Source: a virus
Taxonomy: Duplodnaviria > Caudoviricetes
Length of the DNA: 64,000 nucleotides
Direction: 5' to 3' (one strand)
IMG/VR virus record: IMGVR_UViG_3300028186_000155
The position numbers and the translations under genes are program-made. The notes beneath the pieces are model-generated. The model had not been told where the DNA came from, ran no database searches, and saw nothing but the letters and a program-made list of their open reading frames with translations. Position 1 is the stretch's first letter. Every line of letters starts with the position of its first letter. This document shows, piece by piece, positions 12,254-31,369 of this stretch.

Positions 12254-12340
12254 AAACTTCCCTAAAAGTGTGAGCGTCTAACTTGCAGGCACAGTTGCCC
12301 GAAGAGGTTTCATTGTACCTATGGGCCGACGAACGGTCAA
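12254..12340 (-). promoter_or_regulatory. sigma70 promoter P1 with conserved leader
   Basis: TTGACC-17-TACAAT, hairpin, GACGCTCAC..TTAGGGAAGTTT. Confidence 0.85.
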
Positions 12341-12345
12341 CCGTC

Positions 12346-12786
12346 CTACAGCGGCCTCTTACAGCACGGGCAGCGCTCCACGCCCTTTACGGTGGTCCCT
12401 ATAGGCTTACGGCCTTTGTGCAGGAACAGGCCCACGCGGTGCGCCCCTGAATAGTCCACAGGCATGCCCGACACATAGGGAGCGCGCAGGGCAGCCAATG
12501 ACGCACGGGTGTTCGGTGTGGCGCCAAGGCCGGGGCCTAGTACCCGTGCTGAATCTTTATCAAGGCACAACGGGCCACGCGGTTTTTCTTCGTCTGGTTT
12601 CTTGCGGTGCCAGATTCCGCCTGCACGTTGTTTTGCGTCGTCGCGCAATTCTCGCAGAATGGTAGCGGCGCCGGGATAACCATCGCGCTCAAGTTCCTTA
12701 ATGCACACGGCCAAACGGCCTACAGTGATTTCTGAAACCAGTTCGTAGCCACCTTCGACCACGCGTTGAAAGAAATAACGGTCCAT
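12346..12786 (-). CDS. hypothetical protein, C-terminal CPCC
   Basis: start refined to MDRYFF. Confidence 0.7.
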   Translation of the reverse strand: MDRYFFQRVVEGGYELVSEITVGRLAVCIKELERDGYPGAATILRELRDDAKQRAGGIWHRKKPDEEKPRGPLCLDKDSARVLGPGLGATPNTRASLAALRAPYVSGMPVDYSGAHRVGLFLHKGRKPIGTTVKGVERCPCCKRPL

Positions 12787-12793
12787 ATATTTC

Positions 12794-13462
12794 CTATGCA
12801 GTTTTGAAAGCCAGATGATCTTTATCAACCCACACCCCGTGACGGGCAGCCAGATATTCAATCGTGTTGTGTTTGCCGTCGATCATCGACCGGGGATCTA
12901 CCACGACCACCGAATCAATCTCCGGTGCGTAGAATTCCACGGTTTTCAGCAGACGCGCCAGATCAAAACCGATCACCATTTCAGCGGCAGGCGTGCGCGG
13001 GTGCAGGAACAGAACCTGCTGGCGTGCCTGCCCAACCAGATACAGGCCGCGCAAATTACCGACCGTGATTTCCATGTCCTCGTTTATTTTCAGGTCGGGT
13101 TCATTTTTCACCATGGGCACCACACCCACGGTACGTCCATTGCGCAGGAACGCCGCCACGTAATCTAGCCAGCGCACATTATTGGTAATGTGGTTTTTGA
13201 TTCCGTGCCGGTAATTGAAACTGATATCAGGGTCGCGCAGCATCACGCCGTAATCCAGACGGTTTTTGAACGCGCCCCAAATCAGGGCTGGTGCATACAG
13301 CCAAATTCGCCAGCGTGGCAGGTGGTAAATCTTGGCGGCCTTGAGGTGGTAGTAAAAGCCGACCATGGCACCGAGGAACCACGGGATCTTTTTTGCCACC
13401 AGCAACAAACAGAAAAGGGCACACAACACCAACGGCGTGAGCACCCAAAAATTAATTGCCAT
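12794..13462 (-). CDS. putative membrane protein
   Basis: N-terminal TM segments; AGGAG RBS. Confidence 0.75.
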   Translation of the reverse strand: MAINFWVLTPLVLCALFCLLLVAKKIPWFLGAMVGFYYHLKAAKIYHLPRWRIWLYAPALIWGAFKNRLDYGVMLRDPDISFNYRHGIKNHITNNVRWLDYVAAFLRNGRTVGVVPMVKNEPDLKINEDMEITVGNLRGLYLVGQARQQVLFLHPRTPAAEMVIGFDLARLLKTVEFYAPEIDSVVVVDPRSMIDGKHNTIEYLAARHGVWVDKDHLAFKTA

Positions 13463-13473
13463 GGTTTTCTCCT

Positions 13474-13821
13474 TTAGGCCAAAACGTACACGCCGCTTTT
13501 GAGGATTTCGATAATGTGGCGGCGCTCCATTAGCGCAACGCCATTTTCGGTTTTTCGCAGGTGGTGGATGTACTGCTGATAAATCAGGTCAGGCACAGCC
13601 TTGACCACGAAATCGTCTGCACCGTCTTCCTCCAGTTCCTTGCACAGGCGCCGCACTTCCTCTTCGTACTCAAACTGGCGGCTGCTCAGAGTTTGCAGGT
13701 GCACTAGACTGGAACCGCTCTGGTAGTCGTGCACGAACACACATTCCACGCCGCCGACCAGCACGTGCTGCTGATCTACTAAATCATTTACAGTTTCGGG
13801 ATGGTCCAGAAGTTCGATCAT
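13474..13821 (-). CDS. hypothetical protein
   Basis: coupled ORF. Confidence 0.75.
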   Translation of the reverse strand: MIELLDHPETVNDLVDQQHVLVGGVECVFVHDYQSGSSLVHLQTLSSRQFEYEEEVRRLCKELEEDGADDFVVKAVPDLIYQQYIHHLRKTENGVALMERRHIIEILKSGVYVLA

Positions 13822-14003
13822 TTCTTAGGCCTCAGTTCACGCGCACGCTGCAAAAACGTATCGCGATCAATTTTGTATTCGTTGGCCGCCATGATGAACC
13901 CGTGACGGCGTGTGCGCAGGTAATGCCGGTGTGAATAAACGGCCCAGTGAATGCAGCCGTAATAATTGTGTTCCCTTACCCACTCAGGATCAGTTTTGTA
14001 CAT
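13818..14003 (-). CDS. hypothetical protein
   Basis: coupled small ORF. Confidence 0.65.
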
Positions 14004-14241
14004 CGGTCGCCTTCCTTTTGAAGGGCCGTTCGTTATCCTGATTTTTGAACCAATCCATTAATTGCGATTTCGGGTAGCGATTGGCTCGCATGTTGGAGCC
14101 GAACCGCGATGTGATATTCGAGGCGCCCGGATCACGAATAGTCACCGGGCTTTTCGCCATGCGTTCGCGCAACGCCTTCACCGAGACGCCTGCATGTTCC
14201 GCCAGTTCCGCCAGACTCCAAATTGGTTCACGTGCTTTCAT
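13990..14241 (-). CDS. small HTH DNA-binding protein (excisionase/MerR-like)
   Basis: [32 protein letters not shown]; start refined to MKARE. Confidence 0.7.
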
Positions 14242-14245
14242 CTGC

Positions 14246-14614
14246 TTAGCCCTTCGTTGCTTGCTTGCGCGTCGAGTTTGCGCGGGTGAATTCTTTTTTG
14301 AAGCTCCAGCCGAAAACGCCCCACCAGTAGGCGCCACCAATCGACTCATTATCAAGGGTGCTGTTAATCAGGTGCCAGAACCACAGGTCAAACCAGAACG
14401 CACGCAGCAGCCTTTTGAAAGTTTTCCAGATCGGCACGCCAGCTTTCCAGTAGACGACGGTTTCCCACAGGCCATGCGACAACCCACGCGCCAGCGGCCT
14501 AGCTGCCAGCGCCAGCATGATAGGGAACACCACAAAGCCCGTGATGAAACAGGCAGCGATATACCAGTAGGGGAACAGGCCGAAAAAGTATTCTACAGTG
14601 AGATATTTTTCCAT
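14246..14614 (-). CDS. putative membrane protein
   Basis: hydrophobic, Trp-rich; GAGGA RBS before MEKYL. Confidence 0.7.
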
Positions 14615-14625
14615 GCGGGTAGTCC

Positions 14626-14841
14626 TCAGTAGGAAAGTTCGGTTTCGCCGTCGTCGGGGAAATACAGGTTGCGGGTGTGGTTGTAGCAGCAGGCACGCGC
14701 CCAAACATTTTCTTCGGGGAAGTCGCGGGCCTCCGGGTCGTCTTGGAAATTGATATCGTAGGACAGCGTATAATCGCCGTCCACCATTTCGAGGCTGGCA
14801 TAGGTGCTGCCAGTAATTTCGATTACCTTGAAGTCGAACAT
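14626..14841 (-). CDS. small acidic hypothetical protein
   Basis: GGAG RBS before MFDFKV. Confidence 0.65.
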   Translation of the reverse strand: MFDFKVIEITGSTYASLEMVDGDYTLSYDINFQDDPEARDFPEENVWARACCYNHTRNLYFPDDGETELSY

Positions 14842-14843
14842 AT

Positions 14844-15047
14844 TCACTCCGTCAGTGCTTGACACACAATGCAGCGTTGCGCCGTGGGGTGCGCCTTCAG
14901 CCGGGCGGCCCCTATAGGTTCGTCGCAGTCGATACAATCGGTGCGTGGTGGTCCTGCGAGCGATTTACGCGCCCGGTAAATTTCCAGCGCTATGGAATTT
15001 TCCATTTCCTTTTCCATGTCGCCGTCACGTGCCCAACCTACAGCCAT
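14844..15047 (-). CDS. TraR/DksA C4 zinc-finger protein
   Basis: MAVGWA.DG...CIDCDEPIGAARLKAHPTAQRCIVCQ. Confidence 0.9.
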   Translation of the reverse strand: MAVGWARDGDMEKEMENSIALEIYRARKSLAGPPRTDCIDCDEPIGAARLKAHPTAQRCIVCQALTE

Positions 15048-15070
15048 AATTTGTACTCCGGTGTTTCATC

Positions 15071-15100
15071 CTGTTGCGCACTCAAGAGAATGCGCAGCAG
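15071..15100 (-). promoter_or_regulatory. intercistronic hairpin family copy H2
   Basis: UGCGCAUUC-UCUU-GAGUGCGCA + UGAAAC. Confidence 0.65.
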
Positions 15101-15103
15101 TGA

Positions 15104-15415
15104 TTATTCCACAGCGGGCAAAGGATCAGGTTCGCGGTCGATGATGTACCAGCTAACTTCGTTGGCGGTCCATACAGTGCCGTCTTCAGAAGCCTGCAAT
15201 TTATTGTGCATTACCTCAGTCACCCAGCACGGGCGTGGCTCAGCCCCATTGGTGCGGCTGAATTCATCGCCTTGTTGGCTGTTGATTTCGGCGGCACGTT
15301 TGTAAAACGACGCTTCGTCTTTCGCCACCAGATAGCCGTCCGGGCGGTCGCCCCAGCCGCGTTCGAATTCGGTCACGCCGCGAAAGAACGCCGGGAATTT
15401 AACTTGCTCGGTCAT
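15104..15415 (-). CDS. hypothetical phage protein (EFERGWG.RPDG motif)
   Basis: AGGAG RBS. Confidence 0.8.
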   Translation of the reverse strand: MTEQVKFPAFFRGVTEFERGWGDRPDGYLVAKDEASFYKRAAEINSQQGDEFSRTNGAEPRPCWVTEVMHNKLQASEDGTVWTANEVSWYIIDREPDPLPAVE

Positions 15416-15424
15416 AATGTCTCC

Positions 15425-15748
15425 TTAATTTGGCCGGGCTTTGTTTTTTAGGTACTGCGCCATTTGCTGCGGATCGTTGTCGAGCAAAGCAGCGGTTTCA
15501 TCAAATTCCGCGTCCGACACGATAATGCCGCCTTCGGCTTCGAATTCAGCGCGGTTGCAAACGCCGTATTCATTACCACGGAATTTCAACAGGAACAGGC
15601 CGTGCGGCTTCAGCATGTCACGCAGCTTGGCGGCCACGTCTTCGACGGTTTCACCGCTAAGCATCGCGTCGTCAAAAGCGATGATGTATTTCCCCTGCTG
15701 GTCGTGCAGGTCTACCAGTTGATGCAGCAAATCTTCGCGGTCGATCAT
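15425..15748 (-). CDS. hypothetical protein
   Basis: GGAG RBS. Confidence 0.75.
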   Translation of the reverse strand: MIDREDLLHQLVDLHDQQGKYIIAFDDAMLSGETVEDVAAKLRDMLKPHGLFLLKFRGNEYGVCNRAEFEAEGGIIVSDAEFDETAALLDNDPQQMAQYLKNKARPN

Positions 15749-15752
15749 GTCG

Positions 15753-16088
15753 TTACTCCACTTTTACCCATGGGCGCAAAACGTAGCGCTCTTTCAAATA
15801 TTTCAGCCAGTCTTTAGCCGTGTCGCCACTGGCCAGAACCTCGCCGTTTTTCTCCAGCTTGAAACCAATGGTCGTGGTTCCAAGTTTGTGCGTGAATGAG
15901 GCGTGCCCAAACACTTCGGAATTTTGATACAGCAGGAAAACGACGGTCGTTGCATCCTGCTCGGTGTCGTAGTGGCTTTCGAGTGCCGCACCGTGCAATT
16001 TCGATACGTCGATAAAGTGGTTGCGCACCACCTGCGTCAGGTTGGCTATGCGTGATGCACGGGGGTGTTGCCGGTCGTGAATTTCCAT
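15753..16088 (-). CDS. hypothetical protein
   Basis: start refined to MEIHDR. Confidence 0.7.
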   Translation of the reverse strand: MEIHDRQHPRASRIANLTQVVRNHFIDVSKLHGAALESHYDTEQDATTVVFLLYQNSEVFGHASFTHKLGTTTIGFKLEKNGEVLASGDTAKDWLKYLKERYVLRPWVKVE

Positions 16089-16672
16089 CACTTCGCCTTT
16101 TTCTTTTTCCGTTTGCGGTTGCCGTGGCAATCCACAAGGCCCGCCAGTTGATCGTCGGCGTCCCGTGTATCGATGTTGAACGCTTCGAGCATTGCGCGGT
16201 TCATCACCTCGGGATAACCATCGACGTTTATTTCCATCGTCGGCTCTTCCGAGAACAGCGCAGATGCCACGATGGCTGAAACCTGATCCATCAGGAAATC
16301 AATCATGCCGTCGTTTTCGTCGTAGAGGACAGTGGCGCGTTGCTCTTCGTTCAATTCCGCGAACGTCGCCGGGAACTCAGGATAAAAGAATGGCGTATAG
16401 TTTTTCGCCACGTGATCTTGAGCCTGTTCAGGCGTCCATTTACTTTCGTAGAACGGCTGCCATGTGTTGTTGTGCAGCACCTGCACCGTGACGCCCACCG
16501 ATGCCACGATATCCACCGAAATGCGGACGTGTGGCTGGCCACCTTTCAGCAGGATAACGGCTAGGTCGCCATCACGTTTTACTTTGGTGCCGCACTCGCT
16601 GCGCAGGCCGCCGATGCAGGCCTCTGGAAATTTGTAAGGTTTCATTTGTTGTTCCTCGGGTGTCAGTTTCAT
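16088..16672 (-). CDS. hypothetical protein with basic C-terminal tail
   Basis: 194 aa; start may be MKPYK. Confidence 0.75.
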   Translation of the reverse strand: MKLTPEEQQMKPYKFPEACIGGLRSECGTKVKRDGDLAVILLKGGQPHVRISVDIVASVGVTVQVLHNNTWQPFYESKWTPEQAQDHVAKNYTPFFYPEFPATFAELNEEQRATVLYDENDGMIDFLMDQVSAIVASALFSEEPTMEINVDGYPEVMNRAMLEAFNIDTRDADDQLAGLVDCHGNRKRKKKKAK

Positions 16673-16677
16673 TGTGC

Positions 16678-16700
16678 CTGCGCACCAGCTAGATGCGCAG
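16678..16700 (-). promoter_or_regulatory. intercistronic hairpin family copy H3
   Basis: CUGCGCAUC-UAGCU-GGUGCGCAG + UGAAAC. Confidence 0.7.
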
Positions 16701-16713
16701 AACCAATTAGCTG

Positions 16714-16989
16714 TCAGTCTTCGACCGTTTCATCCGGGTGCAACAAGCCCTGCGATTTCAGAGCCTTTTTGAATTCGAGGAAGCCGATGCCATTCACGCA
16801 CTTGTCGCCGTGCACCATGGTGACGACGAAATAATCGCCTTCGTCCACGGTGAAAGTGCAGACCAGCTGATTTTTACCAGCGCGGCGCTCTTCTACGCTG
16901 TATAGTTGCACGTTCCCGAAGCTGTTGATCAGTGCCACGTGATTTACGTCAGCGAAAAGCGATTTAACGGTGTTTGTCATTTTCCACAT
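16714..16989 (-). CDS. hypothetical protein
   Basis: GAGGA RBS. Confidence 0.75.
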   Translation of the reverse strand: MWKMTNTVKSLFADVNHVALINSFGNVQLYSVEERRAGKNQLVCTFTVDEGDYFVVTMVHGDKCVNGIGFLEFKKALKSQGLLHPDETVED

Positions 16990-17025
16990 TTTTGAATCCT
17001 CGTTGGGTCGTCAGTTTTACCGTGC

Positions 17026-17049
17026 CTGCACACTCCTTAGAATGTGCAG
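17026..17049 (-). promoter_or_regulatory. intercistronic hairpin family copy H4
   Basis: CUGCACAUUC-UAAG-GAGUGUGCAG (compensatory change relative to H3). Confidence 0.7.
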
Positions 17050-17062
17050 AACCGATTAGCTG

Positions 17063-17491
17063 TTATTCGGAAATTACGCGCATGCCGTAATGGTCGCTGT
17101 TGCCTTTGCGGTAGAACTCAACGACGCGGCCATGCATGCGGATTTTCTGGCCGGGTTTCAGCAGCACCATTTCCCAGCGTGCGCGATTGTGGCCGACGAT
17201 GGAAGATGCGCAATTGTTCACCCAGTACAGTTCGTGCTTGCGCTCGGTGCATTGCGCTTCAGCCGCTACCGGGTCTTCGTTGTACTCCATCGCGTAATAG
17301 GCGCTGCAATTCGGCGCGACTTCAGGATACAGCGTGCCGTGGCGCATGGATTCTTTAGCCACGCAGAAACGCAGGCCGGGCTGGCCGATACCGTCACCCA
17401 TCGAACCGAAAGGCAGGTCGAGGATTTCTTGGTTCAGGTCTACAACGTCGAAAGCTGGAACGGATTTTACGAGGGTTTTGGTAGCGGTCAT
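17063..17491 (-). CDS. hypothetical protein
   Basis: AGGAG RBS. Confidence 0.8.
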   Translation of the reverse strand: MTATKTLVKSVPAFDVVDLNQEILDLPFGSMGDGIGQPGLRFCVAKESMRHGTLYPEVAPNCSAYYAMEYNEDPVAAEAQCTERKHELYWVNNCASSIVGHNRARWEMVLLKPGQKIRMHGRVVEFYRKGNSDHYGMRVISE

Positions 17492-17542
17492 TTTGTGGCT
17501 CCTGATAAGGATCGTTTTGGTTTGGTACAGCTTCGTTTCATA

Positions 17543-17564
17543 TGCGCACCGTTCTAGATGCGCA
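17543..17564 (-). promoter_or_regulatory. intercistronic hairpin family copy H5
   Basis: UGCGCAUC-UAGAAC-GGUGCGCA + UGAAAC. Confidence 0.7.
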
Positions 17565-17572
17565 GAAAAAAC

Positions 17573-17722
17573 TCACTGGTCAATCTTTGTGGCACCGCGT
17601 GGCTTCGGGGCGTTTTTCTTGCGGCGCCATTCAACGTAAACGAAGGCGCCCATGATTGCGAGAACCGAGGCCAGCACGGCGATTTCTTTAACGTGGCCGA
17701 TGGTAGTAGTTGCGTATTCCAT
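17573..17722 (-). CDS. 49-aa single-TM protein (MEYATTTIGHVKEIAVLASVLAIMGAFVYVEWRRKK...)
   Basis: hand-translated; AAGGA RBS; below ORF-track cutoff. Confidence 0.65.
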   Translation of the reverse strand: MEYATTTIGHVKEIAVLASVLAIMGAFVYVEWRRKKNAPKPRGATKIDQ

Positions 17723-17734
17723 TGTAGCGGTTCC

Positions 17735-18177: not shown

Positions 18178-18326
18178 TTGCTGATCCCTTTGCGGAAGCG
18201 GCGGGCTGCGTCAGAAACCAGTTGTTCGCGTTCGGCTTCGGCTTTGCGGATATCGGAATCCCAATTCCAAGTGGCGGCTTTGGGGGCGTAAGCGGATTTG
18301 CGTTTGGCAGTCGATGCGTAGGCCAT
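18174..18326 (-). CDS. 50-aa early protein (MAYASTAKRKSAYAPKAATWNWDS...)
   Basis: hand-translated; directly after the P2 leader; ATGA overlap with next gene. Confidence 0.7.
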   Translation of the reverse strand: MAYASTAKRKSAYAPKAATWNWDSDIRKAEAEREQLVSDAARRFRKGISK

Positions 18327-18330
18327 TTTT

Positions 18331-18417
18331 AAACTTCCCTAATTGCGTGAGTGGGAGATTAGCGGGCAGCCAATCTCTAGGTGGCCCAAAGGTATCAAAG
18401 GCCTGTTAGGGAGTCAA
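18331..18417 (-). promoter_or_regulatory. sigma70 promoter P2 with conserved leader
   Basis: TTGACT-17-TACCTT (TGn extended), hairpin, CACTCACGCAATTAGGGAAGTTT. Confidence 0.8.
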
Positions 18418-18448: not shown

Positions 18449-18478
18449 TGTACGCGCATACGCGCACGCATGCGTATA
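18449..18478. repeat. 30-bp perfect alternating purine-pyrimidine tract
   Basis: tgtacgcgcatacgcgcacgcatgcgtata. Confidence 0.85.
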
Positions 18479-21796: not shown

Positions 21797-23323
21797 TTAC
21801 AGCGCGTTGAACTCGGCAATGGTCATGGTGTTGGCGTAGGTCGGTTGGCCGTCGTTCATGTAGATCAGATCGAGAGGCAAACCGGCGTGACCTTCGGCGG
21901 CAGATACTGCGGTCGAAACACCGTCACGTTTCACGATACGCAGCACCGAAACGATTTTCGATTTTGCGCCCTTCGTTACGCGTACCCCCAGTTCCTTGAT
22001 TTCGTCGCGGGTAGGCTTAACGGTGGTGCCTTTCTTTGCAGTGCCCTTGCCTTCAGCGGCTGCGAAATTCAGGCGTGGAGCCTTGCCGTTTACTTCCTGT
22101 GCCGCTTGCTTGGCTGGGGCCTTGCGGGTGTTCTCGGCAGACTTTGCACCGGCTTTAGCGTTGGTCGAAGCTACACCGGCCTTTTCCATGGCGCCGGAAA
22201 TCAGGGCCAAATCAGAAACGCGGAACTTGCCTTTCACTTCGATGATTGCGGCCAGTGGTACACGCTTGCCGCTGGTGGTGATTACCACGCGTTCGTCGGT
22301 TTCTTTGACGCGCATGATTTTCTCAACCTGTTCCAGCTTGCGGCCATCCATGAAACCTTTGGCGCGCAATTCGGTGGTGCTGATTGCCTTGTGGGCAGGT
22401 GCTGCATTTACTACGGCCTTGGTGGTCGGGGCCTTTGGCGCAGGCTGCGAAGTTTCTTTGTGCTGTGCAGCCGATTTTTCGAGGCCGTGGTTTTTGACCA
22501 TGCGACCTTTGCGAGTGGTGGAAATCTTGGTGGTGAGGTGCTTCCAAGGCTGTGCGGATTCCTCGAATGCGCGCACGTCTTTCAGCGACATATCATCGTA
22601 GGCCCACACTGCTTTGTCCTTCATGGTGACAAACAGCGTTTTGGTGTTGCGGTCGTACTGGGCGCCAGTCAACTGGGTGCTGGTTTTGACTTTCAGGTCG
22701 CGGATTGGGAACACGCGGCCTTCGGTGGCGCTGGCAGCGGCCTTACCGGCGTTTTTGGTGCTGGCCGGGGTTTCGGTCGGGAAATCTTCCTGCTCGACTG
22801 CTGGGGCCTTCGCTGGGGCTTTGGAACCACCTTTTACTGGGGCAGCAGGGGCAGCGGTGTATTTGTCCACCAGATCCAGCTTAACGCGCAGGTTGCCGCG
22901 ATTGTTGAATTCCAGATCGGCAGCGGCGATTTTGCTGCCCTTGTCGGTAACGACAGTGCGCACGCCAGCGATGTTCGAAATACGCAGCACCTTTTCTTTG
23001 CTGCGACCGATCATCAGTTCACCAGCTTCGCGGATGGCGCCGGATTTCAGTTCTACCGCGTCAGCTTTCGGCGCTGGGGCAGCTTTGCCAGCCGGGGCCT
23101 TGGTTTCGGTCGCTTTCGGCGCTGGGGTGCCAGCAGCGGCTTGCTTGGCTTTGAAATCCTTCAGCCAGCTGTTCAGTTCGCGATAGGTAACGCCGTTACC
23201 GATATCGTCACCGAGTTTGTACAGCGGGGCGCCGGTTTCTTTTTTGTGTTGCTTGTTACGCTCGATCAGCGATTCAGCAGCAGCAACCAGCAGGGCAGTT
23301 TGAGTGTGGATTACGTTGGTCAT
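21797..23323 (-). CDS. Lys/Ala-rich multidomain nucleic-acid-binding protein with KTSC domain
   Basis: STQLTGAQYDRNTKTLFVTMKDKAVWAYDDM..F.ES; three related basic modules; KAPA linkers. Confidence 0.75.
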   Translation of the reverse strand: MTNVIHTQTALLVAAAESLIERNKQHKKETGAPLYKLGDDIGNGVTYRELNSWLKDFKAKQAAAGTPAPKATETKAPAGKAAPAPKADAVELKSGAIREAGELMIGRSKEKVLRISNIAGVRTVVTDKGSKIAAADLEFNNRGNLRVKLDLVDKYTAAPAAPVKGGSKAPAKAPAVEQEDFPTETPASTKNAGKAAASATEGRVFPIRDLKVKTSTQLTGAQYDRNTKTLFVTMKDKAVWAYDDMSLKDVRAFEESAQPWKHLTTKISTTRKGRMVKNHGLEKSAAQHKETSQPAPKAPTTKAVVNAAPAHKAISTTELRAKGFMDGRKLEQVEKIMRVKETDERVVITTSGKRVPLAAIIEVKGKFRVSDLALISGAMEKAGVASTNAKAGAKSAENTRKAPAKQAAQEVNGKAPRLNFAAAEGKGTAKKGTTVKPTRDEIKELGVRVTKGAKSKIVSVLRIVKRDGVSTAVSAAEGHAGLPLDLIYMNDGQPTYANTMTIAEFNAL

Positions 23324-23328
23324 GATCT

Positions 23329-23415
23329 AACTTCCTATAAAGTGTGAGTGTCAAACTTAGTCGGCGTGGTTGCCGATTGGATTTCAGAATGCCATTAGAG
23401 GCGCGTGCGTGTCAA
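23329..23415 (-). promoter_or_regulatory. sigma70 promoter P3 with conserved leader
   Basis: TTGACA-18-CATTCT (TGn), hairpin, GACACTCACACTTTATAGGAAGTT. Confidence 0.7.
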
Positions 23416-23702: not shown

Positions 23703-23744
23703 GGTTCGTACTCCATTTGGGTTTGTGGTTTCAGTGCAGCCAGC

Positions 23745-23768
23745 TTGCGCACCATTCTAGATGCGCAA
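23745..23768 (-). promoter_or_regulatory. intercistronic hairpin family copy H6
   Basis: UUGCGCAUC-UAGAAU-GGUGCGCAA + UGAAAC. Confidence 0.7.
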
Positions 23769-23781
23769 ACGGGTTTACCTG

Positions 23782-24185: not shown

Positions 24186-24536
24186 TTAGTGCTCCGATTG
24201 TGGAATGTGGCTAAAGATGCCGGGGCCTTGTGCGCTGGGTTCCATGCGCAGGTTATTCAGACGGGCATAATCCACTTCGCGGGCGCAATAGGTACGCTCT
24301 TCAGAATCCTGCCCGAACGCAATGCTTTTGCGAACGGTGACAGTGCCGTCTTCGTTTACGGTGAAAGCCTGTTTGCCGAAAACCGGAAAGCCAATCACTG
24401 CGCGTTGGGTTTTGGCGTCGAGGCGAATTTCCTTACCTTCCAAATCTGACAGGCAGATGGTTTCAAAGAACGACAGCACGCCTGCGCTTTTTGGTACTGC
24501 CCAACTTTCGATTGCGGTGAATGCGATCCGGCTCAT
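24186..24536 (-). CDS. hypothetical early protein
   Basis: start refined to MSRIAF after the P4 leader. Confidence 0.75.
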   Translation of the reverse strand: MSRIAFTAIESWAVPKSAGVLSFFETICLSDLEGKEIRLDAKTQRAVIGFPVFGKQAFTVNEDGTVTVRKSIAFGQDSEERTYCAREVDYARLNNLRMEPSAQGPGIFSHIPQSEH

Positions 24537-24542: not shown

Positions 24543-24627
24543 AAACTTCCCTAATTCCGTGAGTGTCATTTTTGCAGGCACAGTTTGCCCGAGGCCCAAA
24601 CTTCTCAAATTCGGTTCCGGCTGTCAA
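24543..24627 (-). promoter_or_regulatory. promoter P4 (degenerate -10) with conserved leader
   Basis: TTGACA-17-GAAGTT, hairpin, GACACTCACGGAATTAGGGAAGTTT. Confidence 0.65.
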
Positions 24628-24849
24628 GCGGCCAATGCAAAAACGGCGGCACCTCTTATACGCGTGTACGCGTGCGAGCGCGTTCCCGTTCCTGAAGTTC
24701 TGCCGTGTGCGCTTCGATTTGGCGGGCCGTGCGTTCGTAGATGCTGCCATGTACGCGGTCGCGCCAGATTTCAAAACAGATGCCGAGCGCACACACAAAC
24801 CAAAGTGCGATTGGTAGGCATTCGGGTGTGCTCAGTATGGTTTCGAGGA

Positions 24850-25056
24850 TCATGGTTTTGGTTCCCCATCAGGTTTTTGGTGCAGGTGCGCTTTCAACTG
24901 CGCTTCGTGTTCGGCAATCTGCCGTTCCTCTTCTGCCTGCCTTCTTTTCATCGCTGCGTACTCGTTGCGCATGTAAATGCCGAACAGGATAAGCAGTGTC
25001 ACCGCCAGAAAAATAATGCCAGCGAATACTATGTTGCGGATCGTCTCCAGTTCCAT
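24850..25056 (-). CDS. small single-TM protein
   Basis: AGGAGG RBS before MELETIR. Confidence 0.75.
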   Translation of the reverse strand: MELETIRNIVFAGIIFLAVTLLILFGIYMRNEYAAMKRRQAEEERQIAEHEAQLKAHLHQKPDGEPKP

Positions 25057-25069
25057 ATGCCCTCCTATG

Positions 25070-25093
25070 AAAAAGCCGGGACGTGCCCGGCTC
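25070..25093 (-). terminator. intrinsic terminator
   Basis: GAGCCGGG-CACGU-CCCGGCUUUUU. Confidence 0.75.
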
Positions 25094-25110
25094 ATTTATT
25101 ACCGCTGGAA

Positions 25111-25569
25111 TTATTCTGTACCCAGCGGATATTTTGCGGTGTCGCGATTGGCCAGCCAGAATTTCAGCAGGGCCTCGGTATTTTCTACAACCGAGTTGCA
25201 CAGCGAATCGGGCTGAATGCGCGAACCCATCTGGTGATGAATAATGTGCGGGTCGAAAAGGTCGCATTGCGAGTTGTACACGTCTTCGAAAATCGAAGAG
25301 GCTGTGCAGTCGCTGCTGGTCCCCGGTTTGATGTTCATCAGGAACGGCAATTGCGTTTTGTAGGCCGTAATCTGCTGGCGCAATTCGTGGAGCGCCTGCA
25401 CCGTGATTTCTTCGCCGCCGTCCTTGATGAATGTGGCGGTGTCCAGAAATTCTGCAACGGCCATCAGGGCAGGCAGCTTTTCGCGGAACTTGGCGCTTTG
25501 CATGAATGCACGCACGCGGCCTTGCGCGCTGTCATAAATGCGCTGGGTGTCACCGATTGGTTTAGTCAT
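25111..25569 (-). CDS. hypothetical protein
   Basis: coupled ORF. Confidence 0.75.
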   Translation of the reverse strand: MTKPIGDTQRIYDSAQGRVRAFMQSAKFREKLPALMAVAEFLDTATFIKDGGEEITVQALHELRQQITAYKTQLPFLMNIKPGTSSDCTASSIFEDVYNSQCDLFDPHIIHHQMGSRIQPDSLCNSVVENTEALLKFWLANRDTAKYPLGTE

Positions 25570-25997: not shown

Positions 25998-26580
25998 AAG
26001 CTACAGGTTCCTCGTAATCCAGCCCTTGGTTTCTGCAAAACTCTTTGTGTGTGATGGTCAGACGCAAAAGCTCGACAGGCTTATTTGTACCGGCGCCAAA
26101 ACTATTTGCCGTTTTAAGCATGTGGTCGCGATCAATCCGGCGCCTCAATTTCTGCGCCAGACGATCCCCAAATTCCGTTGCGTCTGGCAAACGTTCCAAC
26201 CACATATCAACGTACTCGGCGCCGCTTACATTATGCACCTGTTCGTAAATCGGTTCGTCATTGGCGCTGAAACCACTGGGCCACAAACGATTGGTCAGCA
26301 GTGCCCAGCGCAGGCGGTAGCCTTTCGGCACGTCGTGGGTGCGGTTGTCAGGGTCCATATAAATATGCGCCTCGATAAATTTCGGCGGCACGCTTTGCAT
26401 GTGGTCAGGTATCGCCAACACTTTCAGCGATTCGCGGCTTTTGCTTGCGTGGTCGAGTTCAGCCCACAACTTTTCCAGCAGCGTATCGACGTTGCAATTT
26501 TTGTCGCTCTGAATGTCGATGATGGCCTGCGCCAGTTTAATCACGACATTGTTTTTGTAGCCCATGATTTGGTCCTTCAA
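25987..26580 (-). CDS. hypothetical protein
   Basis: coupled ORF. Confidence 0.75.
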   Translation of the reverse strand: MKDQIMGYKNNVVIKLAQAIIDIQSDKNCNVDTLLEKLWAELDHASKSRESLKVLAIPDHMQSVPPKFIEAHIYMDPDNRTHDVPKGYRLRWALLTNRLWPSGFSANDEPIYEQVHNVSGAEYVDMWLERLPDATEFGDRLAQKLRRRIDRDHMLKTANSFGAGTNKPVELLRLTITHKEFCRNQGLDYEEPVAYDA

Positions 26581-27059
26581 ACGGTGGTGAAGTGCTGGCG
26601 TGAGCCAAGGGCAAACGCGTTGTTAAATTCGGTCACGTCAATGTCATGGAACCGGTAAATGGCATTGCCGCCAGTGGTCAGTCCGAGTTGAACCGTGCTC
26701 CACTGCGAATCGCCCATGAGGCGATTTACAGCCTCTTCAATTTCAGGCTGGCGGAACTGGAATTTGGCGCCGGTTTCTTCCACCGGGCGTTGCACGTCAT
26801 GCTCAGGATTCATAATCGCAATGACGTTCATTTTGTCGTAGGTGAATTCCTGCCCTTCGTGGGTCAGGCGTACACATGCGACGTAAGGGCGGAAGCGCAG
26901 GTCTGCGAATTTGTCAGAAGAGCGCAGGTCGATTTTGGTATGGCACGTTTCGCCGCCGAACTCGAAAATGCGTTTCTGCAATTCGTCGTCATGCGCGATT
27001 AGCCACAAAATCATTTCGGTCGTTGGTTGGGTTTCAGACAGCACGGCGACGAAAAACAT
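26577..27059 (-). CDS. hypothetical protein
   Basis: GAGGA RBS. Confidence 0.75.
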   Translation of the reverse strand: MFFVAVLSETQPTTEMILWLIAHDDELQKRIFEFGGETCHTKIDLRSSDKFADLRFRPYVACVRLTHEGQEFTYDKMNVIAIMNPEHDVQRPVEETGAKFQFRQPEIEEAVNRLMGDSQWSTVQLGLTTGGNAIYRFHDIDVTEFNNAFALGSRQHFTTV

Positions 27060-27087
27060 TGGTTGATCCTCAAATTAGTTTCCTACT

Positions 27088-27114
27088 GACAAAGCCCGCA
27101 CAGGGCGGGCTAAG
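27088..27114 (-). terminator. repeated terminator-like hairpin T1
   Basis: CUUAGCCCGCCCUGUGCGGGCUUUGUC. Confidence 0.75.
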
Positions 27115-27120
27115 TTTGGG

Positions 27121-27354
27121 TCAGTGGGCGCGCTTACGGATGGTTTCCAGCAGCGGCATTTCATGCTCAACGAAAGTGTTTTGTTTGCGGTCCAGTGCGG
27201 CCACCACGTGGCCCCGTTCCGATTCGTCCACTGCCCACTCTAAGGTCGCGGTGGCGTAGGACATTAATTCCTGCGTGGTTTTGATTCCGCACCGCTCCAT
27301 CAGTTTCAGCAGGCGTGCGGCGGTGGCTTCGTCGGTGATGATTTCGTGTCGCAT
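27121..27354 (-). CDS. ribbon-helix-helix-like DNA-binding protein
   Basis: MRHEIITDEATAARLLKLMERCGIKTTQELMSYA; GGAG RBS. Confidence 0.65.
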   Translation of the reverse strand: MRHEIITDEATAARLLKLMERCGIKTTQELMSYATATLEWAVDESERGHVVAALDRKQNTFVEHEMPLLETIRKRAH

Positions 27355-27367
27355 TTTATTTCTCCGG

Positions 27368-27565
27368 TCAGTGCTGTTTGATTTTCTTGATTCGCCACGT
27401 GTCGCACTTGGGGCAATGCGTGGTGTATTTGCGGTGATGAATATCGCCGCGCTTGCCCCGGTCGATTGCGGTAAAAGAACCATCGACCGCGCTAGACCAC
27501 AGCACGTCTTCGACCTTCACCAATTTGAAATTGTGACGGCACAGCAATTGGCGCAGCCAAATCAT
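27368..27565 (-). CDS. small Zn-ribbon protein
   Basis: CRH..CPKC. Confidence 0.65.
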   Translation of the reverse strand: MIWLRQLLCRHNFKLVKVEDVLWSSAVDGSFTAIDRGKRGDIHHRKYTTHCPKCDTWRIKKIKQH

Positions 27566-27975
27566 TTTGCGTTCTCCAGAACGGCCACGCGCTTAGGAAT
27601 GCGGCGCGCTTTAGTTCCATCGGGCATGCGTACCCACACGTATTCAGAAAGGGCCGTAACGATCCCACAAAAGAGCGTAGAGCCGTTATTCAGGCCCACG
27701 GCCACAGTATCACCGAGCCTTATCAATTTACCGCGCACGTCGAGTGGAATAGGCGGTGTGTAATCCGGGTTCGCGTAACGCGTAACCAACGCCACCAATT
27801 GCTTTGTGTCGAGGTCGTTAACCAGCAGGCTAGAAATGAAACGGCCACGCTCGCCATTTACGAAAACGAACCAGCACCATTTTTTGCCGTCCTGATCCTT
27901 TTTCAACTTCAGGCCTTTCCGGTCCAGCAGCTTGTTCGCGTCAACAATTTTTGTGTGGCGTTCTTGGACGATCAT
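27562..27975 (-). CDS. hypothetical protein with C-terminal SH3/KOW-like domain
   Basis: DVRGKLIRLGDTVAV. Confidence 0.7.
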   Translation of the reverse strand: MIVQERHTKIVDANKLLDRKGLKLKKDQDGKKWCWFVFVNGERGRFISSLLVNDLDTKQLVALVTRYANPDYTPPIPLDVRGKLIRLGDTVAVGLNNGSTLFCGIVTALSEYVWVRMPDGTKARRIPKRVAVLENAK

Positions 27976-27982
27976 GCGAGCC

Positions 27983-28264
27983 TCAATTCTTTTTCAGGAT
28001 TTCTTCGATTTCGCCGCCCCACAAACCAATGTCGGGGATGCGTTGGCTATCGTGCGGCCAGCCTTCGCGCTGCGGCCCGTATTCTGTATCAGGGTCCATT
28101 TCTGCGCAGATCGTCGGCGGGCAATTTGCCCAGTACAGGATGCAAGTCACGGTGCCTTGGCCGGTCGATCCGTCGCGGCTTTTAATTCGGATGCGCGTGC
28201 CGGGCACAATATCTTGATCGCACCAGTTGAACGAAGGCAATTTGTTAGGGCGGTTATTGCTCAT
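27983..28264 (-). CDS. hypothetical protein
   Basis: AGGA RBS. Confidence 0.7.
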   Translation of the reverse strand: MSNNRPNKLPSFNWCDQDIVPGTRIRIKSRDGSTGQGTVTCILYWANCPPTICAEMDPDTEYGPQREGWPHDSQRIPDIGLWGGEIEEILKKN

Positions 28265-28293
28265 GCTGCAATTCCTTTGTCTGGTTTACTACT

Positions 28294-28320
28294 GACAAAG
28301 CCCGCACAGGGCGGGCTAAG
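28294..28320 (-). terminator. repeated terminator-like hairpin T2
   Basis: 27-mer identical to T1. Confidence 0.75.
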
Positions 28321-28329
28321 TTTTCGGGT

Positions 28330-28497
28330 TTAGACTTCTGATCCGTCTTCGGCTTCGCGTGGGGTCACGGATTTAATCGGCCCCATATGAGAAAACGAAC
28401 GTTGGATAAATTCGCGCACGTCCTGTTGATCGGTGCCGTACTCTTCCATTACTTCACCGCTTTCGAAAACCACGTCCCACAAAATCGACTGGCTCAT
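28330..28497 (-). CDS. 55-aa acidic protein (MSQSILWDVVFESGEVMEEYG...)
   Basis: hand-translated; AGGAGG RBS; fills a gap in the ORF track. Confidence 0.7.
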   Translation of the reverse strand: MSQSILWDVVFESGEVMEEYGTDQQDVREFIQRSFSHMGPIKSVTPREAEDGSEV

Positions 28498-29078
28498 TAG
28501 TTGGCCTCCTTATCAGCCGGGAATTCGTCTGCGCTGTCCGTGTCGTCTAGCAATTCGTCCTCGGCGCTTTCTGCGCTGGCCTCTGTGACGTTTTCAGGGC
28601 CTACCGCGATGTATGTAAGGGCCTCGGTGATCGAACGCGTAACGGCCTTGTCGCCGCCTACGTGATACGGCGTCAGGCTCGCCACGTTATCCAGATACGC
28701 CACCTCTTCGTAACCTGCCCAACCAGAATGGCGCCCGTCACTGCAAACCACGCGGTGACGGAAACCGGAGTCGTTCCAGTTTTGTGAGCCTTCTTTGGTT
28801 TCCACGTCGTAACGAATATCGTCAGACTCTTCGTCAGGGGCCAGACTGCGCTCGACCGCAATGGCTTCAGCAGCAGGGGCCAGAGCCACAATTTCATCCA
28901 CCGACAATTCCCAAAAAGATTTGGCAGTCAGTTCACGGAGGAAAACACGCTCGCCAACGTGGCGGAAGCAATAGCCGCGCCCGATAGGGGTGAATTGCAT
29001 TCCTTTGTAGTGCTCGGTTTTTTGCAGCGCTTCGCTAACTGCGTTGAGTTTGGTGTGGCGGTCTGCTTGAGTGCTCAT
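28497..29078 (-). CDS. hypothetical protein with acidic tail
   Basis: GAGGA RBS. Confidence 0.8.
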   Translation of the reverse strand: MSTQADRHTKLNAVSEALQKTEHYKGMQFTPIGRGYCFRHVGERVFLRELTAKSFWELSVDEIVALAPAAEAIAVERSLAPDEESDDIRYDVETKEGSQNWNDSGFRHRVVCSDGRHSGWAGYEEVAYLDNVASLTPYHVGGDKAVTRSITEALTYIAVGPENVTEASAESAEDELLDDTDSADEFPADKEAN

Positions 29079-29113
29079 GTGTTCCTCGGTTTTCCGTTGG
29101 TTGGTTTACTACC

Positions 29114-29139
29114 GACAAACCCCGCACTAGGCGGGGTTA
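29114..29139 (-). terminator. repeated terminator-like hairpin T3 (compensatory variant)
   Basis: AACCCCGC-CUAGU-GCGGGGUUUGUC. Confidence 0.7.
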
Positions 29140-29143
29140 TTTG

Positions 29144-29341
29144 TCATTCTGGAATGCGTTTCCATTCACGATAAAATTCGGCTTCGGGAATCACTATGCG
29201 CTGACCGCTACGCACGTAATAAATGGCATCACCACACGCACCAACGCGCTGGCCTTTGTGGATGTTCACCTGCTGGCTAGTGGCGCTGCATTCGTAGCGC
29301 CCCAGCTTGCGTATACGGGTCAGTTTCATTTTGCCCCTCAC
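29144..29341 (-). CDS. hypothetical protein
   Basis: coupled small ORF. Confidence 0.7.
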   Translation of the reverse strand: MRGKMKLTRIRKLGRYECSATSQQVNIHKGQRVGACGDAIYYVRSGQRIVIPEAEFYREWKRIPE

Positions 29342-29538
29342 TCAAAATTGATTGCTGATACGCCGTTTACGCCAACCTGATACCGGTACGCCGGGCGACC
29401 GCCACGCGTATCGTACACGGTGTAAACCTCGCCTTCCTTTTCGACCACCTTGTGTTGGAGGTTGCTAAACGGGGCGCTGCTACCGTCCGCGAAGTCGATG
29501 ATCATGAATTGCGCTTTGATGATTTCTGCTTGGGCCAT
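29338..29538 (-). CDS. hypothetical protein
   Basis: AGGAG RBS. Confidence 0.75.
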   Translation of the reverse strand: MAQAEIIKAQFMIIDFADGSSAPFSNLQHKVVEKEGEVYTVYDTRGGRPAYRYQVGVNGVSAINFE

Positions 29539-29550
29539 TTGTGATGCTCC

Positions 29551-29778
29551 TTATTTCGAACGGCGGTCAAAAAGTTTTTTGGCGGCTTCCAGCGTCAGGT
29601 CTTTTTCGACGTAGCGCCAAGTCGAGACGTATTTGCCACGTACATAGTTAGTGCACAGCTTCCAAACGCCAAACGGTGCGTCGGGGTTTGCCAGCGAACC
29701 GTTGTCGCATTGCAGCGAGTAGGTAACGCCCTTGCTGTTTGTTTTGCGGTACACGATTTGCGCGCTGTGCAGTGCCAT
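29551..29778 (-). CDS. hypothetical early protein
   Basis: directly after the P5 leader. Confidence 0.8.
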   Translation of the reverse strand: MALHSAQIVYRKTNSKGVTYSLQCDNGSLANPDAPFGVWKLCTNYVRGKYVSTWRYVEKDLTLEAAKKLFDRRSK

Positions 29779-29783
29779 GGCTC

Positions 29784-29871
29784 AAACTTCCCTAATTGCG
29801 TGAGTGTCTGTTTTGCGGGCAGCAGCTGCCCAACTGGCCCCAAAGGTATCAAAGCCCCCGCCAAAGGTCAA
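29784..29871 (-). promoter_or_regulatory. sigma70 promoter P5 with conserved leader
   Basis: TTGACC-17-TACCTT (TGn), hairpin, GACACTCACGCAATTAGGGAAGTTT. Confidence 0.8.
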
Positions 29872-29938
29872 CCATTGGCCGCGATGCCTTATCTACGCGG
29901 GCGTGTACACGCGTATAAGCAACGCAGGCGCCAGAAAC

Positions 29939-29965
29939 GACAAAGCCCGCACAGGGCGGGCTAAG
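29939..29965 (-). terminator. repeated terminator-like hairpin T4
   Basis: 27-mer identical to T1/T2. Confidence 0.75.
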
Positions 29966-29969
29966 GGAT

Positions 29970-30470
29970 TCAAAGGGCAACGACTTCTGTTATCACCGGG
30001 TGGCGGTTGTAGTGCTGGCTCACATGCTCAGCCAATTTGAAGTGGCGTCCATAAATGTCGAGGTGGCGTCCACGTTCAAATTTGACCTTGAACAGAGATT
30101 CATTGGCTAACGGCCCTTTTACAAACTTGAGGCCGTCCACAATTCTGACCCGTGCTTTTGCCTGCTCGACTTTCGCCCGGTAGAAATCAATGGTCGTATC
30201 GGCGTCCGTCACCGTTTGCAGCCCGGCAATAAATCCGGTGGTGTTGTGCATGAGGCGGCGCGCATTAATCGCCAGATCATAAATCGGCGTGTGCTCGAAT
30301 TCGCGCAGGGCCTTCAAAGCGGCATCCTGCAAAAACTCGGAATCGGCAACAGGCTTGCGATTTTCGATTGCCTGTAGAACCTGCGTCGGGATGCACAGCA
30401 GGTGTGCCAAATCCGATTGCTTGATGCGCAGGCGCTGGCGCCATTGCTGAATTTTTCGTCCGTCGTGCAT
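29970..30470 (-). CDS. XRE/Cro-like HTH protein
   Basis: IQQWRQRLRIKQSDLAHLLCIPTQVLQAIEN. Confidence 0.75.
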   Translation of the reverse strand: MHDGRKIQQWRQRLRIKQSDLAHLLCIPTQVLQAIENRKPVADSEFLQDAALKALREFEHTPIYDLAINARRLMHNTTGFIAGLQTVTDADTTIDFYRAKVEQAKARVRIVDGLKFVKGPLANESLFKVKFERGRHLDIYGRHFKLAEHVSQHYNRHPVITEVVAL

Positions 30471-30498
30471 TTTTCTTGTTCCGTGTGGCCTAGACGTG

Positions 30499-30525
30499 AA
30501 AAAGCCCCAGCTAGGCCGGGGCTTC
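30499..30525 (-). terminator. intrinsic terminator
   Basis: AAGCCCCGG-CCUAG-CUGGGGCUUUUU. Confidence 0.75.
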
Positions 30526-30535
30526 TGTCAGTGGG

Positions 30536-30982
30536 TTACTCGGCTTTTGGCATACGGTGCAGATTCGCAACGCGTACCGCTTCTTTCGCTTCGTCTGCGG
30601 TCATACCCTCGGGCAATTGCAGCTTAACGATTTGTGGGCGGCGTTCGTTGGTTACAGGTGCACCCTCAATCAGGAAATTGTGATAAACGTCGTCATCTTC
30701 CCAAAAGTTGCCCTTCTGCCCCAATTTGACCAACACATAAATGTTGTCGCCGTACTCGCCAATCATCCAGTTGCCGAACTTGCGGTAGTACGGCTGGCCA
30801 TTCGGAATGTCGCAAACCTGCTCAGGGAACGCAGAACGACGCATGCGCGACAGCTTCAGCGATTTGAACAATTGGTTAATGTTGAAAACCGCACGTTCTT
30901 TGCCAGCAGCAATGGTTGCCTGCGTGATGGCGAAAACGGCTTCTTCGATTTTGTTCAGGTCTGCTTGATCGTGAGTGGACAT
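30536..30982 (-). CDS. hypothetical protein
   Basis: GGAG RBS. Confidence 0.8.
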   Translation of the reverse strand: MSTHDQADLNKIEEAVFAITQATIAAGKERAVFNINQLFKSLKLSRMRRSAFPEQVCDIPNGQPYYRKFGNWMIGEYGDNIYVLVKLGQKGNFWEDDDVYHNFLIEGAPVTNERRPQIVKLQLPEGMTADEAKEAVRVANLHRMPKAE

Positions 30983-31078
30983 TTTGATTCTCCACTAGCC
31001 TTTAGGATTCACCGGGCGTTAGCGGGCTAGTATCACCGACGCCTAGTGTCTTGCTCTGTAGTGTTTACAGTTTTTCCG

Positions 31079-31282
31079 TCACTGCTTGACGTAGACCGTA
31101 ATGTCGTCGTCTTGCATAACGTATTCGTCACGAACTTGGCGAATGTAATCCGCATCATTGTCCGTTTCGATAATGATTTCCTCGGCACCGCCATTGGGCA
31201 GCTTGCGTAGCACAGCGGCGCTGATGCCATTCAAAACGGCAGGTGCCAATTGCACCAAACCGCGCAGGATTTCATTGCTCAT
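31079..31282 (-). CDS. small hypothetical early protein
   Basis: MSNEILRG directly after the P6 leader. Confidence 0.75.
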   Translation of the reverse strand: MSNEILRGLVQLAPAVLNGISAAVLRKLPNGGAEEIIIETDNDADYIRQVRDEYVMQDDDITVYVKQ

Positions 31283-31369
31283 AAACTTCCTAAATTTCGT
31301 GAGTGTCGGGGCTGCGGCCACACTGCGCCACAAGCCCCGGAGTATACCGCTTTAAGCCGCTTCGGTCAA
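31283..31369 (-). promoter_or_regulatory. sigma70 promoter P6 with conserved leader
   Basis: TTGACC-17-TATACT, long hairpin, ACACTCACGAAATTTAGGAAGTTT. Confidence 0.85.

Follow-up and report, generated by a model that had tools for sequence, protein, structure and literature searches.

In Escherichia coli, 5′ untranslated regions (UTRs) of the ompA type carry a 5′-terminal stem-loop that stabilizes the message, and in phage T4 the endoribonuclease RegB and the translational repressor RegA act on the ribosome sites of early mRNAs. The promoter-early-stem-loop (PeSL) cassettes of T4-type phages (PMC2839356, PMC4122927) are the closest described kind of element to the one reported here, a promoter-hairpin-leader unit that occurs six times in a 64,000-nucleotide stretch of phage DNA (the window; IMG/VR record IMGVR_UViG_3300028186_000155). 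Both are repeated modular units of ~100 bp in an early or ORFan-rich region, and both join a strong, early σ70-type promoter to a GC stem-loop and end in the Shine-Dalgarno (SD) sequence and ATG of the next gene. They differ in the stem-loop. PeSL stem-loops are terminators or attenuators that lie before, within, or after the promoter, whereas the hairpin described here always falls in the first nucleotides of the predicted transcript, downstream of the −10 element and without a U tract; it is not a terminator or attenuator of upstream transcription, and separate terminators precede the promoters. Our units also carry an invariant 21-nt box, which PeSLs do not have. The unit is real and undescribed: neither hairpin nor box is annotated in the records, and we found no paper describing either.

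The source record is the 314,224-bp genome, with direct terminal repeats, of a Lu11/HRDY3-like jumbo phage, and the window is the minus strand of genome positions 90118 to 154117. In GenBank, the closest relative is Pseudomonas phage HRDY3 (313.7 kb), with patches of ~80% identity; Lu11, a jumbo phage of P. putida, is more distantly related. When the window was searched with ACTCAC-N5-TWGGGAAGTT (≤3 mismatches), 6 matches were obtained in 64 kb, exactly at the six sites, against 0.57 expected; none of 100 shuffled sequences reached 6. The six sites lie on the minus strand at the coordinates given in the initial annotation, and the box region aligns without gaps. As that annotation had proposed, a σ70-type promoter, a hairpin, and the conserved box were found at 6 of 6 sites. 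Each promoter consists of TTGAC(A/C/T), a 17- to 18-nt spacer, and a TAnnnT-like −10 element, often with an extended −10 TG, and the end of the −10 element is separated from the start of the box by 33 to 38 nt at all six. The promoters are probably early.

All six cassettes are on the minus strand of the window. Cassette 6 has its promoter (TTGACC-17-TATACT) at 31341 to 31369, its 5′-proximal hairpin (−15.4 kcal/mol) at 31310 to 31336, and its box, ACTCACGAAATTTAGGAAGTT, at 31284 to 31304, followed by the ATG of a 67-amino-acid (aa) gene at 31282. The promoter of cassette 5 (TTGACC-17-(TG)TACCTT; 29843 to 29871) is followed by a GGGCAGC/GCTGCCC hairpin (29816 to 29832), a box (29785 to 29805), and the ATG of a 75-aa basic protein at 29778. 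Cassette 4 comprises a promoter (TTGACA-17-(TG)GAAGTT; 24599 to 24627), a CGGGCA/TGCCTG hairpin that includes a G-U pair (24575 to 24591), and a box (24544 to 24564) ahead of a 116-aa gene with its ATG at 24536. In cassette 3, whose promoter (TTGACA-18-(TG)CATTCT) lies at 23386 to 23415 and whose hairpin (TCGGC/GCCGA) lies at 23361 to 23376, the box is the variant ACTCACACTTTATAGGAAGTT (23329 to 23349), and the ATG of a 508-aa KTSC-like protein stands at 23323. Cassette 2 runs from its promoter (TTGACT-17-(TG)TACCTT; 18389 to 18417) through a hairpin with a z score of −4.2 (18355 to 18377) and a box (18332 to 18352) to the ATG of a 50-aa basic protein (isoelectric point of 10.2) at 18326. Cassette 1 (P1) has a promoter at 12312 to 12340 (TTGACC-17-TACAAT), a hairpin at 12282 to 12304, and the box GCTCACACTTTTAGGGAAGTT at 12255 to 12275, which does not serve as a ribosome binding site (RBS). 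A second hairpin at P1 (12238 to 12262) pairs GGGAAG of the box with CTTCCC and is followed by TTTTCT; the real SD sequence (GAGGA) and ATG (12216) come after it, with GAGGA-ATG 40 nt downstream of the box, and on this point the initial annotation was right. The second hairpin is kept in HRDY3, in the related contig G002, and in one IMG/VR contig, where the T run is missing.

The box spans 21 nt, (GAC)ACTCAC-N5-T(A/T)GGGAAGTT(T). Across 30 canonical cassettes, it holds 1.59 bits of information per position, compared with 1.77 for the −35 hexamer and 0.53 for the −10 region. The nine canonical paralogues of this genome are 82% identical in the box but only 43% identical in the leader before it and 28% identical in the DNA after it, indicating selection on the box and not recent duplication. 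Its 3′ half (UAGGGAAGU) can form 8 of 9 possible pairs with the 16S anti-SD sequence, and the SD sequence used most often by the genes of this phage is AGGAA. In ~70% of copies an ATG lies 3 to 9 nt 3′ of the box, which is the RBS there. Pairing between box and anti-SD (−6.4 kcal/mol) ranks at the 45th percentile of this phage's genes; SD strength is therefore not the reason for the invariance of the box. The invariant cores are TCAC and AAGTT, and box variants with ACTCAC, AGTCAC, and GATCAC occur. The purine-rich part is free of C in all but one variant, which has a new SD sequence directly 3′. In the box variant at 7.2 kb (TTCGCAAGTT), the G run is gone and a new GGAG SD sequence follows, with both cores kept, and the cores are also intact in the Lu11 copy GATCAC..AGAGGAAGTT. 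Since the cores persist where the box is not a ribosome site, the box is more than an SD sequence, as the initial annotation had argued from P1. Its natural reader would be a sequence-specific RNA- or DNA-binding factor, which that annotation had also considered.

At each site a GC-rich hairpin of 5 to 9 bp begins no more than ~6 nt from the predicted transcript start (at about +1 to +6). In 34 distinct leaders from four genomes, folded individually, the 32 nt 5′ of the box fold better than shuffled sequences (mean z of −1.9), and 40 of the 263 hairpin pairs are G-U. The stems move by a few nucleotides and vary in sequence (GGGCA/TGCCY, GGCCA/TGGCC, and CGGC/GCCG), which makes the hairpin a positional or structural feature and not a sequence feature. 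The loops also differ between copies in this genome (CUG, AACUG, ACUG, AACCAC, AUUUG, and others), and only the GGGCA/UGCCY stem recurs. Between hairpin and box lie 8 to 12 unpaired, A/C-rich nucleotides, and the stretch from the hairpin to the SD sequence is G poor.

A covariance model of hairpin plus box was searched against the whole genome. This check, together with a comparison of relatives, extended the family from the six sites of the initial annotation to 11 forward cassettes in the genome, with further copies in related phages. Besides the six in the window, forward cassettes lie at 170.2 kb, 190.5 kb, and 303.3 kb and as a tandem pair at 7.2/7.4 kb; all 11 are co-oriented with genes. 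Two reversed boxes are also present, each adjoining an early-type promoter. The box stands at a fixed distance in 9 of the 12 strong σ70-like promoters within noncoding DNA, so the box leader is a near-universal property of the host-type promoters of this phage. HRDY3 has 10 cassettes, a 308-kb IMG/VR genome has 12, and Lu11 has 6 plus degenerate copies; four further Lu11-like contigs of ~310 kb carry the cassette as well. Control searches with the sequences read backwards gave no matches, and among GenBank phages only HRDY3 and Lu11 were matched. In Lu11, HRDY3, G002, and other contigs, the cassettes precede orthologous genes, and the box does not differ between Lu11 and this phage, whose proteins share only 36 to 73% identity. 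The Lu11 GenBank record annotates two of the cassette promoters as σ70 type, one of them explicitly as early, and labels a separate motif, AAAACTGTAAATA, “putative middle/late promoter.” The box was not found in phage PaBG or Erwinia phage Y3, and PaBG has no obvious TTGAC promoter class with a shared leader either; this distribution points to a clade-specific reader rather than to the ribosome alone.

An acidic protein of 623 aa is encoded after the tandem cassettes (genome positions 7190 to 7500, minus strand). No start codon follows the box of the first cassette. In the second, a weaker promoter lies inside a long AGGGAAGCC/GGCTTTCCCT stem, and the box variant already mentioned comes with a new SD sequence. 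The whole stretch is nearly invariant across three genomes. The short open reading frames that follow the 7-kb box are not conserved between genomes, which gives no sign of a leader peptide there.

We tentatively favor the view, possible though short of probable, that the unit is a modular early promoter/5′ UTR cassette whose hairpin guards the 5′ end and whose box is a shared RNA-level handle for a clade-specific factor. Host σ70-RNA polymerase (RNAP) would start transcripts at TTGAC-N17-TAnnnT. The short GC stem-loop at the transcript start resembles the ompA-type stabilizer in being a stable structure of arbitrary sequence a few nucleotides from the (here predicted) 5′ end, and in the same fashion it would shield that end from RppH and RNase E. 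The 3′ half of the box is the SD sequence of the first cistron, and the box as a whole, SD sequence plus TCAC recognition element, would be the common RNA-level handle; this role is suggested by the invariance of TCAC and AAGTT, by an SD sequence of merely average strength, and by cores kept away from the RBS. By reading the box, a clade-specific factor would control all early messages together, at the level of translation, decay, or both. The parallel would be with T4 RegA and RegB: a signature in the translation initiation region is common to many early messages, and one factor could switch them all off. The signature here is nevertheless far longer than GGAG or RegA sites, varies much less, and is also found at a distance from start codons. 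The cassette is a module that extends from the promoter through the RBS and stands before unrelated genes. A bolder form of the idea, to which we give less credence and which we regard as rather unlikely, holds that a clade-specific factor docks on the box and treats all transcripts made by the host polymerase as one regulon. The box might then be a new processive antitermination or anti-Rho signal, or a global early-mRNA switch acting on translation or decay, with the “orphan” leader copies at the P1, 7-kb, and 303-kb loci as decoys.

Several results weigh against an RNA-level handle read by a dedicated factor. Folding of the leaders favors the sense over the antisense strand by a small margin (Wilcoxon P = 0.048 for the 34 leaders), a marginal preference; this supports, but weakly, the remark in the initial annotation on G-U pairs found in several copies on the minus-strand transcript alone. 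Covariation in a fixed-register 6-bp helix of the ungapped alignment was not significant (114 of 500 shuffles reached the observed score), and RNAalifold returned no consensus structure for the leader alignment. Both negatives arise because the hairpins shift register between copies, and support for the hairpin was taken from per-sequence folding in place of formal covariation. When 21 proteins from cassette-led units or adjacent to them, 11 of them first cistrons, were scanned against Pfam and PHROG, no RNA-binding family emerged, only a subthreshold KTSC match. RegA (PF01818) had no match in the genome, and the best match to RegB (PF10715; E = 0.04, 11.7 bits) fell below the cutoff in a frame opposite to the local genes; no control genome with either family was available for these searches. 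The cores are kept in four ortholog groups in which the box lies away from a start codon (P1, 7.4 kb, 303 kb, where the distance is 58 nt in this genome, and the reversed 268-kb copy). Finally, the two reversed boxes lie directly 5′ of the −35 elements of early-type promoters, and one of them is conserved in three genomes. Reading at the RNA level accounts for the reversed copy at 303 kb, which can form a stem with the forward box, but not for that at 268 kb.

The reversed boxes are located at genome positions 268226 to 268269 and 303387 to 303422, in each case between an upstream terminator and the −35 element. The 268-kb promoter has a leader of its own with neither hairpin nor box. At 303 kb, a reverse copy of the 3′ half of the box lies upstream of the promoter, and its pairing with the forward box is possible only in read-through transcripts. 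This arrangement recalls T4 genes e and soc, where a stem hides the RBS and an internal promoter is present; it differs in that a single locus is involved here and the box is far from the start codon.

The reversed copies bring in a reading at the DNA level: a phage regulator would bind the box as double-stranded DNA. This regulator could, for example, be a stand-alone LytTR or an XRE-like helix-turn-helix (HTH) protein whose gene adjoins a cassette. Sitting at +27 to +47, such a protein would obstruct elongation and silence early promoters after the onset of middle gene expression; in the reversed copies, its site would lie just upstream of the −35 element. Reversed boxes adjoin the −35 element at both 268 and 303 kb, and the 268-kb copy is conserved above its flanks in HRDY3 and G002. 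LytTR and HTH_3 genes lie immediately 5′ of two cassettes; the LytTR position is syntenic in four genomes, the HTH unit carries a middle/late-type promoter, and the LytTR protein is missing, like the box, from PaBG and Y3. The sequence GAAGTTTRN is also loosely like the GTT-centered half-site of LytTR proteins. We nonetheless consider an operator unlikely. Eleven of 13 copies have the same orientation within a transcribed leader, the box stands at SD distance from an ATG in ~70% of copies, and its G-rich part behaves like an SD sequence. The box has neither inverted symmetry between its TCAC and AAGTT cores nor the form of a direct repeat. A LytTR binding site comprises two 9-bp direct repeats separated by 11 to 13 bp, usually upstream of the −35 element (PMC6193735), but the box is single, with no repeat 21 bp away. 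As an operator, another sequence found upstream of several cassettes, the palindrome TATACGCG..CGCGTATA, would be a more conventional candidate. Another alternative, that there is no dedicated trans factor and the box is an optimized, unstructured ribosome landing site kept uniform by selection for translation efficiency and by recombination or gene conversion among PeSL-like shuffling modules, strikes us as improbable. The cassette does span exactly the promoter to the SD sequence before unrelated ORFans, as PeSLs do (PMC2839356), and the A/C-rich, G-poor stretch between hairpin and SD sequence would suit a landing site. Average SD strength does not fit this explanation, however, nor does the retention of the box in reversed copies and in copies with no adjacent start codon. 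A sharply conserved box beside a strongly diverged hairpin and spacer in the same cassettes speaks against gene conversion, and the box is invariant between Lu11 and this phage despite the divergence of their proteins.

The initial annotation had proposed that the element lets early transcripts read through terminators. In a processive form of such antitermination, a host or phage factor would be loaded on RNAP by the hairpin and box together or by the box alone, or the element would act on RNAP directly, and early transcripts would then pass weak terminators inside early units. The resemblance to λ nut, rrn (boxB plus boxA), and HK022 put sites is a hairpin and a conserved single-stranded box shortly after early promoters, with terminators downstream in the operons. 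The element is indeed found just downstream of every early-type promoter, and leaders that do not use the box as the RBS keep it nonetheless. Within early units there are repeated hairpins that resemble terminators and have short U tracts, as well as one strong-looking terminator ahead of a 68-aa gene; none of these is followed by a promoter. At P1 the box pairs into a terminator-like hairpin whose formation a box-binding factor could prevent. The T run at P1 is missing in one relative, however, and the specific analogies fail. The boxA consensus is CGCUCUUA / GCUCUUUAACAA, to which the box consensus, GACACUCAC-N5-UAGGGAAGUUU, bears no resemblance, only two ortholog groups having CGCUCAC. In boxB, the loop is conserved between the sites of one phage and is bound by the arginine-rich motif of N; here the loops differ among the copies of one genome, which rules out recognition of the boxB/N type. 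HK022 put sites contain two stem-loops in ~65 to 70 nt directly after the promoter, whereas a single hairpin of 5 to 9 bp followed by unstructured sequence is found here. There were no Rfam matches, JUMPstart (RfaH/ops) included. No N-like or NusG-like gene was recognized, and the NGN domain of NusG and RfaH was not found in the 314-kb genome, although 11 of 14 control genomes were positive; a host factor could serve instead. The box, usually doubling as the SD sequence, would moreover be occupied by ribosomes. Promoters recur every 1.2 to 6 kb (median of ~5 kb; six in 19 kb), and just before each stands a terminator that belongs to the family also found inside the units; this arrangement would suggest decay and reinitiation over processive read-through. 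Of that proposal, then, the promoter, the hairpin, and a box that is more than an SD sequence stand, while the nut/rrn analogy does not, and we regard antitermination as unlikely.

The many terminators invoked in the initial annotation were borne out in part: a generic scan of 12 to 32 kb yielded 33 sites, compared with 32 in shuffled sequences, but a specific family of weak terminators, AGCCCGC..GCGGGCTTTGTC (AGCCCGC..GCGGGC-TTTGTC), is repeated within early units. Near-identical members (AGCCCGCCCTGTGCGGGC-TTTGTC) lie inside or at the ends of early units at 27059 to 27121, 28264 to 28330, 29078 to 29144, and 29940 to 29970 (minus strand). The strong-looking terminator (GAGCCGGGCACGTCCCGGC-TTTTTC; 25056 to 25111, minus strand) leads directly into the SD sequence and ATG of the 68-aa gene; there is no promoter between them, and this gene would therefore be expressed only via read-through. 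A second hairpin family, CTGCGCA..TGCGCAG, has no U tract and occurs in the window at ~15050 to 17570 and at 23710 to 23780.

Other classes of signal were set aside. The T7 promoter has its CTCAC 3 nt nearer to GGG than the box does. The box resembles GACTCACTATAGGGAGA, but besides this 3-nt offset in CTCAC-GGG geometry, no T7-type RNAP was found (there were no PF00940 matches in the genome, in a search whose control was uninformative), and a σ70 promoter lies at a fixed distance upstream. An extracytoplasmic function (ECF)/AlgU-type promoter on the opposite strand (AACTT-N17-GTC) would put the invariant GTGAGT in its spacer. A dyad-symmetric operator was likewise rejected: the palindromy of the box ends, ACT..AGT, does not extend to the invariant TCAC and AAGTT cores, and a score of 4 half-site matches out of 6 has a P of ~0.04, uncorrected for the spacings tried. 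The likeness of the box to the middle/late motif ACTGTAAAYA is limited to ACT.

If the box has a dedicated reader, several proteins are candidates by position and phyletic pattern: the LytTR, XRE-like, and KTSC-like proteins and the two small basic first-cistron proteins. The gene for the stand-alone LytTR DNA-binding protein (31366 to 31761, minus strand; Lu11_0024 in Lu11) ends at cassette 6 and is syntenic in HRDY3, G002, and Lu11. That for the HTH_3 (XRE-like) protein (29970 to 30470, minus strand; Lu11_0021 in Lu11) is located immediately 5′ of cassette 5 and belongs to a unit with a ACTGTAAACA middle/late-type promoter. The KTSC-like protein (21797 to 23323; Lu11_0007 in Lu11), put forward in the initial annotation, is no better a candidate than these neighbors; it gave the only KTSC match in the scans, at 22.6 bits, below the Pfam cutoff of 25 bits.

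Lu11 has been grouped with jumbo phages that have sigma factors but no RNA polymerase (PMC7412058). The present genome encodes one Sigma70_r2 protein, which is 89.6% identical to the HRDY3 “RNA polymerase sigma factor”; PaBG and Y3 share the sigma factor. Lu11-like jumbo phages have ~460 genes to time with the host RNA polymerase and a sigma factor of their own, and one invariant leader on essentially every early transcript offers a single handle for experiments on what boosts, protects, or silences early expression. The unit is also a compact, portable expression module for Pseudomonas putida, comprising promoter, putative stabilizer hairpin, and RBS. Should the box load an antitermination or mRNA control factor, it would represent a new regulatory system; should it be RBS context only, the finding would shrink to promoter annotation.

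Further motifs were noted around the cassettes. An imperfect alternating purine/pyrimidine palindrome, TATACGCG..CGCGTA(T/G)A, rich in ACGCGT, lies 25 to 45 nt upstream of the −35 element of several cassettes (window positions 29893 to 29915, 24658 to 24672, and 18450 to 18476, minus strand). Four of the eight cassettes on the genome plus strand have it upstream, and further examples are found in Lu11, G002, and other contigs. The palindrome may be an operator or an element prone to form Z-DNA. The motif (A)AAACTGTAAA(C/T)A has 37 copies genome wide, always co-oriented with local genes, 15 of them intergenic in rough gene calls. Window copies (minus strand) are at 31071, 21418, 9155, 5379, 624, 37015, 41227, 42117, 44323, 49742, and 51086, and one of them is the promoter of the XRE-like regulator unit that lies within the early region. 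Since the Lu11 record calls it a putative middle/late promoter, it is probably a target of the phage sigma factor. A third intergenic class, GTAATTTA(A/G), has 8 copies genome wide, including one at window position 32414 (minus strand), and may be another promoter type. One copy precedes a VgrG3-C-like (endolysin-like) gene and the LytTR gene. The 201-aa protein encoded at 31772 to 32377 (minus strand) has a strong Pfam T6SS_VgrG3-like_C match (E = 5e−56), and by position alone it can be likened to a Lu11 gene annotated “putative endolysin,” which likewise adjoins a LytTR gene.

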